Source: a virus (Duplodnaviria; Caudoviricetes). Taken from it: a DNA stretch of 32,179 nucleotides. The stretch covers positions 1-32,179 of IMG/VR virus record IMGVR_UViG_3300032305_000084. One strand, written 5' to 3'. The notes below the pieces were generated by a model, which did no database searches, was not told the origin of the DNA, and saw nothing but the letters and a program-made list of their open reading frames with translations. A program made the position numbers and the translations under genes. How positions within the stretch are numbered: position 1 is the stretch's first letter; each line of letters starts with the position of its first letter. This document shows, piece after piece, positions 1,105-29,814 of the stretch.

Positions 1105-1292
1105 AAACAGTTTTAGTGCCAGGTGCGCCTTGGCCTAAACCAGAAGAAAAACTGGTAAGAAGAATATTGCCAAGGTTAAAGATTAAACACGAAAGTACAA
1201 ACCTAGATTACTTTCTAGATGTACATGAACAAATAAAAACCTCCCCGAAGCACAGTAACCGTGACAAATCGGGAAGGTTTAAAAATGATTAA
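1098..1292 (+). CDS. phage hypothetical protein
   Basis: 64-aa ORF, last + strand gene; C-terminal RDKSGRF. Its stop overlaps the convergent gene's stop (TTAA). Confidence 0.6.
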   Translation: MVKTVLVPGAPWPKPEEKLVRRILPRLKIKHESTNLDYFLDVHEQIKTSPKHSNRDKSGRFKND

Positions 1293-25377: not shown

Positions 25378-26901
25378 TCAAGCCCCCATCCAACCACTAG
25401 ATACCGCACTGCGTTCAGTCACAATGCGCCGAGCCACTTCTGTGTACGAACGATGCGCCACAGGGAAAGCAAACGTCACAGCGATAGCATCCGCTGCGTC
25501 AGGAGAAGCCAAGCCGCGAGCTTTCATCTCTTTTTTGCCTTCCAAAAATATAGTTCCTGACGAGTTGGGCTTCTTTGTCGGACCTGTCAGGTCTGCCCTC
25601 AACTGTCTGTCTTGCGGAATACTAGCAGATTTTAGCCAATTCCTCATATCATTCCACATCTCAGCGCGTTTATTTCCAAAGGCTTGTGGCTGTTTTGCCT
25701 TGTTTCCAAAGTTTACGCCTCTCACTTTGTACCGCTGTTCGTTCAATCGGTCTAATATTCCGTAACCCAAACCACCCTCATCAATGACCGTTAGGGTAGG
25801 TTTAAATTCTTCAATGGCATCAATGACGCGACCCACAATCTCCATTGTGTCTTCGCCCTTATATCGCTTGATCGCCACAATATCTCGCCCTTGTCTGACA
25901 GCAATGACCGTAGAGTCAGCGCCACCCCTTGCAGGGTCAACCCCCACCACTATTGGTGCGGTTAGGTCTTTCCATTTGGGGCGTTTCATAGCGTCATCCA
26001 CGATCATTGGAGAAATAAACTGGTCTTCACCCGCAGATGGGAACTCTCCGTAGACCTCAACCTTGGCTTGGCTTGAGTCTTCGCCATATTCAGCAATGAT
26101 TTGCTCATAAATTGACTTGTCTGTGTCCTCAACAGTCCGAGCGTCAACGATTTTTGATGTCCAGAAGTCCCGTTTGGCGTGAAAGCACTCAAAGAAGTAG
26201 CCTTCGTTCCTACGGGGGTTGGAAAACGCAAACCAATAGCGATCAGGGCTGTTTTCTGTAAAGAAGCCTGCGCCCACTTCCCAGATTGGGTTAGGAATAC
26301 CGCTAGATTCATCAAAAATAAGCATCATGCCGTCTTGGTTGTGGACACCAGCGTAAGAATCGGGGTTTTCAGCGCTCCACAACTTACCTTCACACGACCA
26401 GTAACGCGTTCCCTTCTTCAGATCACGCTCTACTAGCTCAGTTAGCCATTGTGCGGGGATTAACTTTGTCGCTGAAATCTCCCACCAATGCGAATTGATG
26501 AGCATTGCTGCCCATTTTGTCAATTCAGCCCATGTGACCGAGCGCAATTGGTTCTCGCTGTTGGCAGAAACCACAACCGAGCCGCCGATTCTTGTGGTCA
26601 GCATCCAAAGAATGAGCCAAGAAACCAAAGCAGACTTACCGATACCGCGACCAGATGAGACAGCCATGCGGATGGTTTCGTAGTTGATCAACCCTTTTTG
26701 CCGTTTAATGTGAGCCGTGATCTCCCTCAGAACTTCTCTTTGCCACTTTCTTGGACCGCTGAAGTTAGCCAAAGGTGTGTTTTTCTGTCCCCAAGGAAAG
26801 GCAAAGAGAACAAAGGCTTCAGGGTCATCTGCAATTGCAGGCGACCACAGTTCTACCATTAGCTTTTGTTCTTCTTCGGATTTATAGATTGGAGTTTGCA
26901 T
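25378..26901 (-). CDS. terL: terminase large subunit
   Basis: Walker A SGRGIGKS, Walker B LIFDE, coupling motif SNP, nuclease GVDPARGG.D and SPD.ADA. Confidence 0.95.
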   Translation of the reverse strand: MQTPIYKSEEEQKLMVELWSPAIADDPEAFVLFAFPWGQKNTPLANFSGPRKWQREVLREITAHIKRQKGLINYETIRMAVSSGRGIGKSALVSWLILWMLTTRIGGSVVVSANSENQLRSVTWAELTKWAAMLINSHWWEISATKLIPAQWLTELVERDLKKGTRYWSCEGKLWSAENPDSYAGVHNQDGMMLIFDESSGIPNPIWEVGAGFFTENSPDRYWFAFSNPRRNEGYFFECFHAKRDFWTSKIVDARTVEDTDKSIYEQIIAEYGEDSSQAKVEVYGEFPSAGEDQFISPMIVDDAMKRPKWKDLTAPIVVGVDPARGGADSTVIAVRQGRDIVAIKRYKGEDTMEIVGRVIDAIEEFKPTLTVIDEGGLGYGILDRLNEQRYKVRGVNFGNKAKQPQAFGNKRAEMWNDMRNWLKSASIPQDRQLRADLTGPTKKPNSSGTIFLEGKKEMKARGLASPDAADAIAVTFAFPVAHRSYTEVARRIVTERSAVSSGWMGA

Positions 26902-28613
26902 TAACGACCTTGACGAAGTTTATTTTTAATTTCTTCTGCTTGTTTCATGTAAGCATCTATGCTCATAGAACTTGGAGGCTTGTTTTGCATTAAACCTTCT
27001 TTGATTGCAGTTTCTGAAGCGCCAATGTCAAACATCTTAGACGCTTGAAGTCGATCAATTATCTGACCGTCTTTAGTCATAAAAAGATCGCTGTCAACTT
27101 CAGCGCCTTTGGGATAAATGTATTTCCCTCCTTCTTTTCTTACAACACCCTCATAAATTGCCCTATTAAGAGCATCACCATGAGTGCGACCAGTAAATAT
27201 TTTGTCGCCAATTAAAACTACAGCACTTTGAATTGGATTGCCTTCTCTAACAATGCTTTGAGCATTATTGCGGCTTTCACGCAATCCGTTAGTTGATTCC
27301 GCTATTCCGTCAGTTTTCTTAATAATTAAATTATTGGGCGCAACGTCATAAGATTCGTAAGGATAGATAACTCGCCTTTGCACATCGCTGTAGTTCATGC
27401 GTTTTTGAACTGCTCTAGCTTCAGCCTCACCCGCCAATCTGCGGTAAGCCTCATCTGCATCTGGTGGCTCATACAACTTTTGGTTCATCAAGTCATCATA
27501 TTTTGTGCGAAGCACATCGTATTGAGCTTGTTTGGCTTTATTAAACTTTCTCTCAAATTCAGGCAACGCATCCATTTGCTTAGACAACGAACTCAATTCG
27601 CTATTAATGCCTGCGTACCAATCATTCAAAACAGTAGACGGGCTTCCACCTTTAGCAAAGCCTTCTTTTCGTTGGATAGCGTGTTGCAACTCATGCAAAG
27701 CCACACCCCTTTCAGGCTCCATCGCTTTTTGACCCATTGTGATTACGTTGTCATTAGGGTCAAAAGTAGCGCCTTGATATTCTTCTTTAGGCCAATGTTG
27801 GAACTTAACCTCATTTAACTCAGGATAGGCTTGTTGCAATCTAGGATGCTCCAACGCACCCTCAAATGTCTTAGCTTCAATAGCGCCATAGGCATCAGGC
27901 TTGCCCTGACCCAATGTCAACTTTGCACCCGTGTCGCTAATCTCTTGACGCAACTTACCTTCTGGACCACGGAAAGTTCCCGTAGCCATCCAAATGTCTT
28001 CTGGCGTATTCCCTGCCTTTTCCATCTTTAAAGCAAGTTCTTCAGCGCCCTTATTCCAACTCTTTGATTTTTGACCAATAAAAATCTGTCTACGCGACCC
28101 TTGGCTCAAGTCACCAAGCAACTGAGCAGGCATCCCACCACGCGCCATAACCTGCGGAACAACCCTCTCCGCATATCTCTCCCCTGCCTTACCCACAGCC
28201 ATCACAGCCTTATCCCCCGCTAACGCCGCCTGTCTAGCAAGTCTCGCAGCCTTCAATGCTTCCGCAGGCGTCATCGGCGCAACCGAACCAATTTCCCCCG
28301 CTACCTCACCAACCCTAGAAGTAGGCGCTAGTGGCAATTCTTTCAATAACTGGCTAGTCCCATAAGGTAGAAGTTTCTGCTGACTGTAATCAACATCCCC
28401 AAACATCTCCATCGGCATAGGGCTTCTGACCACATTCAACACATCAGACGGCAATCCCAACGTACCCGCCACCCTACCCCTAAGCATCTGTAAAGGCACT
28501 TCAGTAGCACCTATAGGGTCTTGCACAGTCCTATTCCTGCGTAATTGCGGGTAATAGCCAAAGGCGGCTCCAAGTTCGTTTTGACCTGATGGGGTTAGCG
28601 AATTTTTAGGCAT
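26901..28613 (-). CDS. polyvalent-type protein: LPD23-like domain + zincin metallopeptidase-like (HExxH) + C-terminal unknown domain
   Basis: IW..TG.FRG.EGKLRQEISD, L.HP.L..AYPEL, HELQHAIQ..EGFA.GG, Y.RLAGEAEAR. Confidence 0.75.
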   Translation of the reverse strand: MPKNSLTPSGQNELGAAFGYYPQLRRNRTVQDPIGATEVPLQMLRGRVAGTLGLPSDVLNVVRSPMPMEMFGDVDYSQQKLLPYGTSQLLKELPLAPTSRVGEVAGEIGSVAPMTPAEALKAARLARQAALAGDKAVMAVGKAGERYAERVVPQVMARGGMPAQLLGDLSQGSRRQIFIGQKSKSWNKGAEELALKMEKAGNTPEDIWMATGTFRGPEGKLRQEISDTGAKLTLGQGKPDAYGAIEAKTFEGALEHPRLQQAYPELNEVKFQHWPKEEYQGATFDPNDNVITMGQKAMEPERGVALHELQHAIQRKEGFAKGGSPSTVLNDWYAGINSELSSLSKQMDALPEFERKFNKAKQAQYDVLRTKYDDLMNQKLYEPPDADEAYRRLAGEAEARAVQKRMNYSDVQRRVIYPYESYDVAPNNLIIKKTDGIAESTNGLRESRNNAQSIVREGNPIQSAVVLIGDKIFTGRTHGDALNRAIYEGVVRKEGGKYIYPKGAEVDSDLFMTKDGQIIDRLQASKMFDIGASETAIKEGLMQNKPPSSMSIDAYMKQAEEIKNKLRQGR

Positions 28614-28714: not shown

Positions 28715-29221
28715 TCAGTCTGGGTCTTTGGGCGTGACATCTGTGGCTGCTGACTTGTCGAATGTTACCCTCGATTGAGCCTCGGTGATCGCATCAATGA
28801 CGCTTATACGCGCATCTGTAACGCTTACATCTATCTTATCGCCATATGTCCTTGGCTTCAACTTACTTGCTACCCACTTCCTGGCATCCACTTGGAGTCT
28901 CTTCTGTTGTACCCAAGCACTAGCCTCTGGTCCTTTCAATCCTTCAGGCATCTCTGCGTCTGATAGCTCGATGATCTCCTCTGCTAGCTTGTCTGCCCTG
29001 TCCTCTACCGCCTTCTCATACATGGCGCGAAACTCAGCGTTGTCCGAGATCATGTTCCTAGCCAACCGATAGCTTGGCATCCCATCTTCCTTCAAGACTG
29101 ACGTTAGGCTCTTACCCGCGCTGATGCCATCAACAATCCTTTGCCAGCATGGATTTGTCAGCGGATAAAGCATCGGCCTTCCCATCTTTGGGCGGTCTAG
29201 CGGATGAAGTGCGTTTGCCAT
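28715..29221 (-). CDS. terS: terminase small subunit
   Basis: GRP..Y, HTH (I..G.SL..V....GMPS), RLQVDARKW.ASKLKP..YGDK, typical of Sf6-like TerS; AAAGGA SD. Confidence 0.85.
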   Translation of the reverse strand: MANALHPLDRPKMGRPMLYPLTNPCWQRIVDGISAGKSLTSVLKEDGMPSYRLARNMISDNAEFRAMYEKAVEDRADKLAEEIIELSDAEMPEGLKGPEASAWVQQKRLQVDARKWVASKLKPRTYGDKIDVSVTDARISVIDAITEAQSRVTFDKSAATDVTPKDPD

Positions 29222-29422: not shown

Positions 29423-29515
29423 GTAGAAGCCTCGATTTGGTCGTTCTAGCGTAAGGCAGAAAGCCAGAAAATTCCTTACTTCAACATCCTCGATTGCTGG
29501 CTTAACGGCTTCTAC
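29423..29515 (-). ncRNA. putative pseudoknotted structured RNA (~93 nt), family unassigned
   Basis: Four nested stems (9, 4, 7 imperfect, 6 bp) plus a perfect 7-bp loop-junction pairing AAGCCAG/CUGGCUU. Confidence 0.65.
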
Positions 29516-29814
29516 GAAATCCACTTGTTCTCTTCTCTCAGTTTTTCTTTAGTTCTCTCAAACGCTGCTTCCCACATTTGCCTTCTCTGTTCCTTGCTCA
29601 GATGTTGGCCTTGGTCTAGTTCAGCATGGCAAGTCTGACATAAAGCGGCTACGAACTCGTCACTTGCCTTAATTCCTCTTCCCTTCCCATGCTCTGCCCA
29701 GTTTGAGTGTGCTGCTTGTGTCTGTCCTTCAATCCCACAGTTCTGACAGGCTAGGCTTGCTACGTTCTTTAGGTGGGCTTTGCTACGGAAGTAGTTGAAC
29801 TTAGGAATCATCAT
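29512..29814 (-). CDS. Zn-binding HNH-like putative nuclease (DUF968/DUF1364-like)
   Basis: RS..HL..V..L.C..CG, AAH, GKG.G.K..D.....LC..CH...D. The true start is probably the ATG at 29814 overlapping the upstream stop. Confidence 0.75.
   Translation of the reverse strand: MMIPKFNYFRSKAHLKNVASLACQNCGIEGQTQAAHSNWAEHGKGRGIKASDEFVAALCQTCHAELDQGQHLSKEQRRQMWEAAFERTKEKLREENKWIS

Follow-up and report, generated by a model that had tools for sequence, protein, structure and literature searches.

Between an HNH-like gene and the gene for a terminase small subunit, the viral DNA considered here carries 93 nt in which several mutually compatible helices can be drawn, and the question is whether this is a genuine RNA, to what it is related and what it might do. 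The window (the whole stretch analysed, 32,179 nt) is from a 32-kb virus record that is 92% complete, and the element, a compact kissing-loop RNA of the At1/Ti2 type, occurs in it once, at 29423–29515 on the minus strand. On that strand the genes run in the order NinB, an ORF of no assigned function, a DUF968/HNH gene (phrog_131, 29512–29814), the element, an Sf6-like terS (28715–29221; PF20901, E = 2e-30), a gene for an LPD23 protein, terL, and the P22-like portal and coat genes; the two genes next to the element serve here as context only. A reading made from the sequence alone had given the element's letters, coordinates and strand correctly, and had rightly put its start at the HNH-like stop, which overlaps the closing stem and lies upstream of a terS ATG 201 nt further on. 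The same reading took the setting for that of a P22-like TerS/TerL motor; TerS is instead Sf6-like, and the gene after it encodes not TerL but the LPD23 protein (570 aa, 26901–28613, minus strand).

Conserved fold and kissing loops

The minimum folding energy of the element is ordinary (z = −1.07; 31 of 200 shuffles were equally good), and such folding recovers the closing stem P1 and none of the remaining helices. In a test devised after the element had been seen, 3 of 20,000 dinucleotide shuffles contained disjoint perfect helices of 9, 7 and 6 bp together; a control with a sliding 93-nt frame (0 of 6418 positions) carries no weight, since its step skipped the element itself. The homologues described below were then aligned, giving 86 sequences (the window copy and 85 of 103 distinct elements, near-duplicates having been removed by eye). 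Here 90.7% of the cells are paired and covariation is 0.53 against 0.20 in shuffled alignments, with none of 500 shuffles as high; P1, P2, P3, P4 and the 7-bp helix between loop and bulge all covary, and slid registers score far lower. Related sequences can beat such shuffles without any structure, but we disfavour a signal of kinship alone because of the slid-register controls and the many independent pair types. The pattern used to find most phage copies partly builds in invariance at its own positions, and the counts of one alignment (A6), which was fitted to the model, lean towards structure; a joint MAFFT alignment of the phage copies with the rhizobial ones was misaligned in its 3' part and went unused. 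We conclude that the element is a real, conserved, structured RNA, and covariation among homologues thus bears out the initial claim of a pseudoknotted RNA that exceeds the needs of a terminator.

All of its parts lie on the minus strand. P1 joins 29507–29515 to 29423–29431; its 5' strand includes the UAG stop (29514–29512) of the HNH-like gene, and its 7-bp core covaries at all pairs. Next comes a small 5' loop (29496–29506), closed by G29506–C29496 and carrying the kissing strand AAGCCAG (29503–29497). P2, the UCGA/UCGA stem (29490–29493 with 29435–29432), is 98% paired with double changes at three of its four pairs, and leads to a conserved internal loop in which GGAU (29486–29489) faces CAAA (29439–29436), the equivalent in At1 being GGAU/CAAC; G29489 and C29439 may pair across it (G-C in 79 and G-U in 6 of 86 sequences). 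P3 (29483–29485 with 29442–29440) is 98.4% paired, with 14 and 20 double changes at two of its pairs, and P4, the 6-bp apical stem (29474–29479 with 29456–29451), has double changes at every pair. The 13-nt apical loop (29459–29471) consists of U4, then the kissing strand CUGGCUU (29467–29461), then UC. On the 3' side of P3 lies a junction linker (29443–29450); it measures 8–12 nt in 88 of the 103 copies and is a full hairpin, P5, in the other 15 and in At1 and Ti2, the window element having no such second hairpin. P1, P2, P4 and the AAGCCAG/CUGGCUU complementarity had each been recognized from the letters alone. An imperfect 7-bp middle stem proposed with them fared badly (69.4% paired in the family, 67 of 500 shuffles as high), and the helix supported in its place is the 3-bp P3, in a register 3 nt away.

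The proposed pairing of loop with bulge was right as to complementarity and wrong as to the bulge, which is a small loop with a closing pair of its own. This pair is G-C in 29 and A-U in 4 of 33 sequences and unpaired in none, and since it covaries in this way the contact is a loop–loop kiss between the small loop and the 13-nt loop. The kiss is 99.8% paired in the 86 sequences, with double changes at six of seven pairs in the set of 33. Because the first search pattern contained AAGCCAG, the scan was repeated with N at those positions: 23 of 32 matches, from two variant scans, were real elements, 22 of them fully paired (three via G-U) and one with a mismatch, and the other nine matches were removed as chance. 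A metagenome scan with at least 120 matches contributed 24 copies confirmed by model R1, additional versions of the kiss among them, after removal of 96 unconfirmed matches. In the final parse, which required at least six of seven pairs, 90 distinct cores contain 13 different fully Watson–Crick versions of the kiss, and the two strands are spaced 28–30 nt apart in all 90, the pattern having permitted 27–37.

It had been argued that loop and bulge sit at opposite ends of an arm of about 17 bp, so that a dimer might be needed. No such rigid arm is seen in the family; with a 3-bp P3 and a flexible junction the kiss can close within one molecule, and a dimer is unnecessary. At the standard helix rise of about 2.8 Å per pair we estimate that P4 and the four U residues can be long enough to span P2, the internal loop and P3 when folded back on them.

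Distribution and genomic surroundings

Among 80 loci found via the HNH protein, the element lies directly after the stop codon in 11 and slightly further on in a few more. It is cleanly missing from two of them (L082, L083), where the stop codon joins the next conserved stretch, and the closest relatives of the window terS (L010, L011), on the same contigs, are without it as well. A pattern scan of IMG/VR yielded at least 120 stretches of an estimated 290, from which coding-region matches were removed, and a structure-aware parse of the collected loci gave 103 distinct elements from 146 occurrences; five further phage records hold one copy each. Upstream genes (47 ORFs scanned) encode a gp2.5-like SSB, two other SSB families, HNH proteins, TerS, TerL and Dps-like proteins, where the families phrog_18140 and phrog_9528, for which annotation is lacking or doubtful, are read as SSB-like from their acidic tails and their place before polymerase or exonuclease genes. 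Downstream (34 ORFs scanned) are two DNA polymerase families, exonucleases, methyltransferases, terS, terL and Dps-like genes, and one copy is flanked by a tRNA on either side. Of two sets of 80 loci chosen by protein, the first has the element in 53 loci and the second in 4. It is a portable, optional, single-copy module of many uncultured phages; its link to the terminase is incidental, and it is not tied to terS.

BLASTn of three versions of the element against GenBank phages gave no match, and model R2 found the element in none of four GenBank phage records. A pattern scan of genome contigs gave four matches, two of them real, in bins labelled Methylopumilus and Rhodoferax, and two due to chance. 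In RNA-type runs, short contigs cover the element in four cases (X1, X2, X3, X5) and the start of terS in one (X4), with none in X6; these contigs are small shares of runs found with the window stretch itself, give no ends, strand or level, and so speak neither for expression nor for a habitat. The openly accessible literature covered describes neither the phage family nor its kiss, and the phage RNA may be among the unnamed candidates of Fremin 2023 (PMC10690425).

Terminators are a recurrent feature of these surroundings. In the clade with SSB-like genes (the set with 53 of 80), at least five T residues follow P1 in 46 of 52 full copies, and 17 of 27 loci without the element carry a plain terminator at the same site, some with a nearly identical stem. 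Since a plain hairpin does the terminator's job in these relatives, the inserted domain would add something else. Across all 103 copies a U-rich tail is present in 25, P1 has 7–9 bp in 85, and ACC follows a 7-bp P1, as it might at a tRNA-like stalk cut by RNase P, in only 20; 62 of 89 copies begin within 30 nt of a stop codon. A −10-like box stands 4–9 nt before P1 in 14 of the 103 phage copies versus 0.75% in controls. The window copy has no −10-like box and no U-tract behind P1, and so lacks the combination of GC-rich stem and U-tract by which an intrinsic terminator is recognized.

Several further motifs recur at these sites. Directly upstream of 20 of the 103 elements (L095, L135, L166 and L176 among them) lies another module, in which a stem whose internal loop is fixed (ACACGCATG...CAGCCGTGTT) encloses variable inserts; as it shares its 3' strand with P1, the two stems compete. 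After the SSB-like stop codon in two loci (L415, L441), a P1-like stem encloses other inserts of 40–55 nt that model R2 does not match, and further uncatalogued RNAs may use a P1-type frame. The motif CAGTTGC(C) recurs at many loci just 3' of stop codons and before terminator hairpins, upstream of 20 of the 103 elements and in the window at 703 on the plus strand and 28713 on the minus strand. Three loci (L146, L241, L268) share the intergenic motif GGGTTAGCGCC ... CTGCTTTATG, which has no Rfam match, and in L204 the element is followed after about 170 nt by a Betaproteobacteria-1 RNA (RF02932, 91 bits; 1147–1264, minus strand).

Kinship to At1 and Ti2

Although the sequence-only reading could assign the element to no family, that statement has been superseded. 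At the gathering threshold no Rfam model matched anywhere in the window, and an E-value scan of 1.2 kb missed Atu_At1 (RF02496), which appeared only in a scan of 141 nt. The comparison with Rfam thus gave no strong match to a characterized family, and it did give a weak full-length one: RF02496 scores 20.8 bits on the window element, with model positions 1–108 aligned, and 34.7, 31.9 and 27.9 bits full length on three other copies (L546, L268, L561), all short of the 60-bit cut-off. In the reverse direction model R1, made solely from phage-type copies, matches the 543-kb pAtC58 at one place, At1 (E = 0.22), and with filters off it matched 8 of 10 alphaproteobacterial plasmid loci over its full length at the element. 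With Rfam scores far below 60 and an E-value of 0.22, the kinship rests on agreement in motifs and structure. At1 shares the unpaired motifs, the closing pair and a complementary kiss of its own (AACCGGA/UCCGGUU), and the conserved loops (the 5' loop, the GGAU loop and the U-rich apical loop) come in the same order and at the same spacing.

In both RNAs P1 joins the two ends, the 5' loop reads G-YY-AA-N5-C, GGAU stands opposite CAAN, and the U4-N7-UC apical loop is complementary to the 5' loop at a spacing of 28–30 nt; both have unrelated neighbours and, in some copies, a promoter directly before P1. The phage RNA differs in being about 90 rather than about 110 nt long, in having P5 usually reduced to the linker, in a P2 of 4 bp rather than 5–6 bp, and in a kiss that is mostly AAGCCAG rather than AACCGGA. 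Phage copies lie mostly behind stop codons or inside terminator stems, whereas those of Atu_At1 stand behind sigma-EcfG-like or vir-box promoters, and the phage RNA scores below the family's Rfam cut-off. Judged by these shared features, the phage element is a distant, compact, sub-threshold relative of RF02496. The same Rfam model scores 80.5 bits on Ti2 of pTiC58 (L612, 872–982), and by this measure At1 and Ti2 are paralogues within one family, a relation on which the accessible part of Wilms 2012 (PMC3384568) makes no statement.

Outside phages, BLASTn with At1 matched 202 plasmid records; nine examples fetched from these have unrelated neighbours where annotated, and one of them is at the position of Ti2. 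BLASTn of one phage copy (L546) against plasmids gave no match. With a joint model, members turned up in 3 of 151 genomes of a phylum sample, the Rhodoferax bin included; two families of 41 genomes each yielded 10 and 9 genomes with members, and among 151 genomes of that bin's order no genome besides the bin had one. Of 20 cellular copies, 15 have a sigma-EcfG-like site (GGAAC-N15–17-SRTT) just upstream, where controls have it in 3.3%, GGAAC and CGTT being described as sigma-EcfG promoter elements in the part of PMC5869019 available to us. The neighbours of cellular copies include catalase, Ku, LigD and PRC-barrel genes with no constant partner, and often no co-oriented gene follows. A link to Ku and LigD (At1, L623, L625) was considered and rejected as too sparse to separate from co-location in stress islands.

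Published data on At1 and Ti2, taken here from the accessible parts of each source, describe discrete transcripts. Sequencing puts At1 at 113 nt and Northern blots put it at 115 nt, with the strongest signal at high density, and Ti2 measures 113 nt, depends on VirA/VirG, is the most abundant Ti-plasmid transcript under virulence induction and far exceeds its downstream mRNA; both are TEX-enriched and, unlike eight other sRNAs, give a single full-length Northern band each, and deletion of Ti2 left tumour formation unaffected (Wilms 2012, PMC3384568). The mapped ends of both, as given there, coincide with P1. RACE and Northern blots have confirmed At1, which rises from 45 to 866–3597 RPKM under stationary or acid minimal growth, and Ti2 has been considered possibly part of a 5' UTR (Lee 2013, PMC3738593). 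Neither is among the 208 Hfq-enriched ncRNAs of Table S6, by name or coordinate (Moller 2014, PMC4201532), an absence that for Ti2 its possible place in a 5' UTR could also explain. The accessible parts of Schluter 2013 (PMC3616915) and of bioRxiv 10.1101/533729 add nothing specific. The cellular relatives recall GsrN of Caulobacter in their sigma-EcfG-type promoters with GGAAC and CGTT (PMC5869019, in part). GsrN, compared here by description, is however stabilized by Hfq, processed, and pairs through an exposed C-rich loop, whereas the loops of our element are locked together.

What the RNA may do

The phage branch is a new, compact form of the At1/Ti2 class which fails the Rfam cut-off and would work like that class. 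For its function we favour, without quite calling it probable, a stable RNA of about 90 nt that acts in trans by binding a protein and not by pairing with mRNA. P4 would fold back over the P3–P2 arm at the junction, the 7-bp kiss would lock the molecule, and the unpaired invariant residues (the GGAU/CAAA loop, U4 and UUC) would form the protein-binding surface. Acting through its shape, the RNA would accumulate as a P1-bounded, nuclease-resistant species, as At1 and Ti2 do, its 5' end made by a promoter or by a cut after the upstream stop codon and its 3' end by a terminator U-tract or by 3' exonuclease trimming, with P1 joining both ends. Phages would place it downstream of highly transcribed genes, or where the late operon begins, so as to produce much of it, and the window copy, with no promoter or U-tract of its own, would be cut from a NinB–HNH read-through transcript.

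A protein ligand is suggested because the seed-like stretches are locked together and vary freely, targets are absent from the flanks, and what phages and rhizobia have conserved are residues left unpaired in the loops. The discrete At1 and Ti2 RNAs, the stand-alone cellular genes with their promoters, the −10-like boxes of 14 phage copies and the absence of At1 and Ti2 from the Hfq-enriched ncRNAs also speak for such an RNA. Against a protein ligand, the T-runs and stop-codon proximity of the phage copies fit a purely cis role just as well, the Ti2 deletion had no tumour effect and Ti2 may belong to a 5' UTR (both known from partial sources), and the 150 other sampled genomes of the Rhodoferax bin's order hold no close copy, so that a host counterpart is missing in the likely hosts.

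Going further, and with more doubt, it is possible that diverse freshwater phages have captured and miniaturized a bacterial general-stress sRNA and employ it as an auxiliary non-coding gene, the product of which, locked by its kissing loops and independent of Hfq, would be a decoy for a conserved host protein. If this were so, phages would share one undescribed RNA–protein system with the rhizobial stress regulon and with the Agrobacterium vir regulon, and should a host-type stress RNA be phage cargo, auxiliary genes would extend to non-coding RNA. Since 2012 At1 and Ti2 have stood as orphan RNAs, with no function assigned to Ti2. It is the sequence diversity of the phage branch that brings out the conserved tertiary fold, with its 13 Watson–Crick kisses, and marks the residues to mutate, and the 90-nt minimal version is a good target for structure determination and pull-down.

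The main rival to the protein-binding RNA is a cis-acting 3'-end or read-through element, in which the knot, within a leaky terminator or mRNA 3' end, blocks exonucleases or tunes read-through so that the upstream gene (SSB, HNH, terS) is expressed above the downstream one; we hold it possible but rather doubtful. It accounts for the T-tracts of the SSB clade, for the near-identical stems of the plain terminators that replace the element there, for the closeness to stop codons, and, on the partial published record, for the excess of Ti2 over its downstream mRNA. Like intrinsic terminators, P1 is followed by T residues in one clade and is interchangeable with plain hairpins; unlike them, it encloses as its loop a conserved tertiary domain of 75 nt, and the T-tract is absent from most other copies and from the window. 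For termination a simple hairpin would be enough, phages and rhizobia have unpaired residues in common, and cellular copies begin at their own promoters, several without a co-oriented gene behind them.

A second cis reading, which we think improbable, is a leader gated by a ligand or protein, a riboswitch-like attenuator that, through binding to its core, would govern the closing of P1 and with it the end of transcription. The c-di-GMP-II and SAM-I riboswitches have a bent hairpin and a loop-to-base pseudoknot, an architecture that the element resembles; At1 lies 51 nt before ligD, Ti2 heads the atu6155–virK operon, and some phage copies begin at a promoter before late genes. The downstream genes, however, share no pathway and in several copies no co-oriented gene follows at all, and an unsystematic look at the alignments noticed no alternative antiterminator pairing.

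An antisense RNA of the C4/CI type, whose loop and bulge pair with target sites and bring about termination, strikes us as very improbable. The P4 CI and P1 C4 RNAs, which we take to be RF01695, are phage-borne like the element and resemble it in a stalk with a bulge, a partly complementary major loop and an optional minor hairpin, and the predominance of a 7–9-bp P1 would also suit this reading. In P4 CI, however, the bulge is 3' and targets lie on both sides, whereas the bulge of the element is 5' and no targets were found: 7-mers like the two expected targets occur 11 and 7 times in the 600-nt flanks of the 103 copies versus about 6.5 expected for each, in no fixed place. Model R2 has no match in the P4 region, no C4-family Rfam match was obtained, and the neighbours scanned include no antirepressor gene.

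Equally improbable, and disfavoured, is a self-assembling dimer or ring formed by intermolecular pairing of loop and bulge, whether for packaging, as with a pRNA, or otherwise. The phi29 pRNA oligomerises by loop–bulge pairing, and the element shares with it such complementarity in a phage RNA; covariation is blind to whether pairing is within or between molecules, and some of the copies do have terS or terL nearby. Unlike the pRNA, however, the element has no fixed association with packaging genes: many copies belong to replication modules, homologues follow SSB-like genes and precede those for DNA polymerase, exonuclease, methyltransferase and Dps-like proteins, rhizobial plasmids and cellular genomes carry relatives, and the closest terS relatives do without it. 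The junction permits fold-back, and the strand spacing is fixed.

Also disfavoured, and still harder to credit, is a self-cleaving or other ribozyme that separates genes. The compact fold, the invariant internal-loop residues, the loop–bulge contact across a three-way junction and the position-independent insertion, between two tRNAs included, are what such a reading would explain; it fits poorly with the single full-length bands of At1 and Ti2 on denaturing gels (PMC3384568, accessible part), and no Rfam ribozyme model matched. Least credible of all is a put-like antiterminator for the late operon, also disfavoured: the element does lie at the early/late boundary in the window and a few HNH-linked copies directly follow a sigma-70-like promoter (L106, L112, L125), but elsewhere it sits at terminator positions with T-tracts, P1 doubling as the terminator stem in one clade, it is missing from close relatives with the same terS, and its relatives accumulate as short RNAs, with Ti2 well above its downstream mRNA (Wilms 2012, PMC3384568, accessible part).

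Two motif-level readings of the element were set aside: a CsrA site in the AGGAUG motif, as P2 covaries at long range, and attC-like ends of the GTTGG/CCAAC kind, as many P1 stems do without them. In the window the element is followed on the minus strand by a second conserved stretch (29422–29329) with an A-run, GCATTAG and a long imperfect hairpin, which is kept in the two loci that lack the knotted RNA (L082, L083) and the start of which recurs in three others (L051, L146, L149); possibly it is a late-promoter, packaging or second RNA element. Beyond the terS stop codon, 28714–28614 (minus strand) carries CAGTTGCC, G-runs and a long T-run in an arrangement like that of a packaging site, and a similar T-rich stretch precedes L161.
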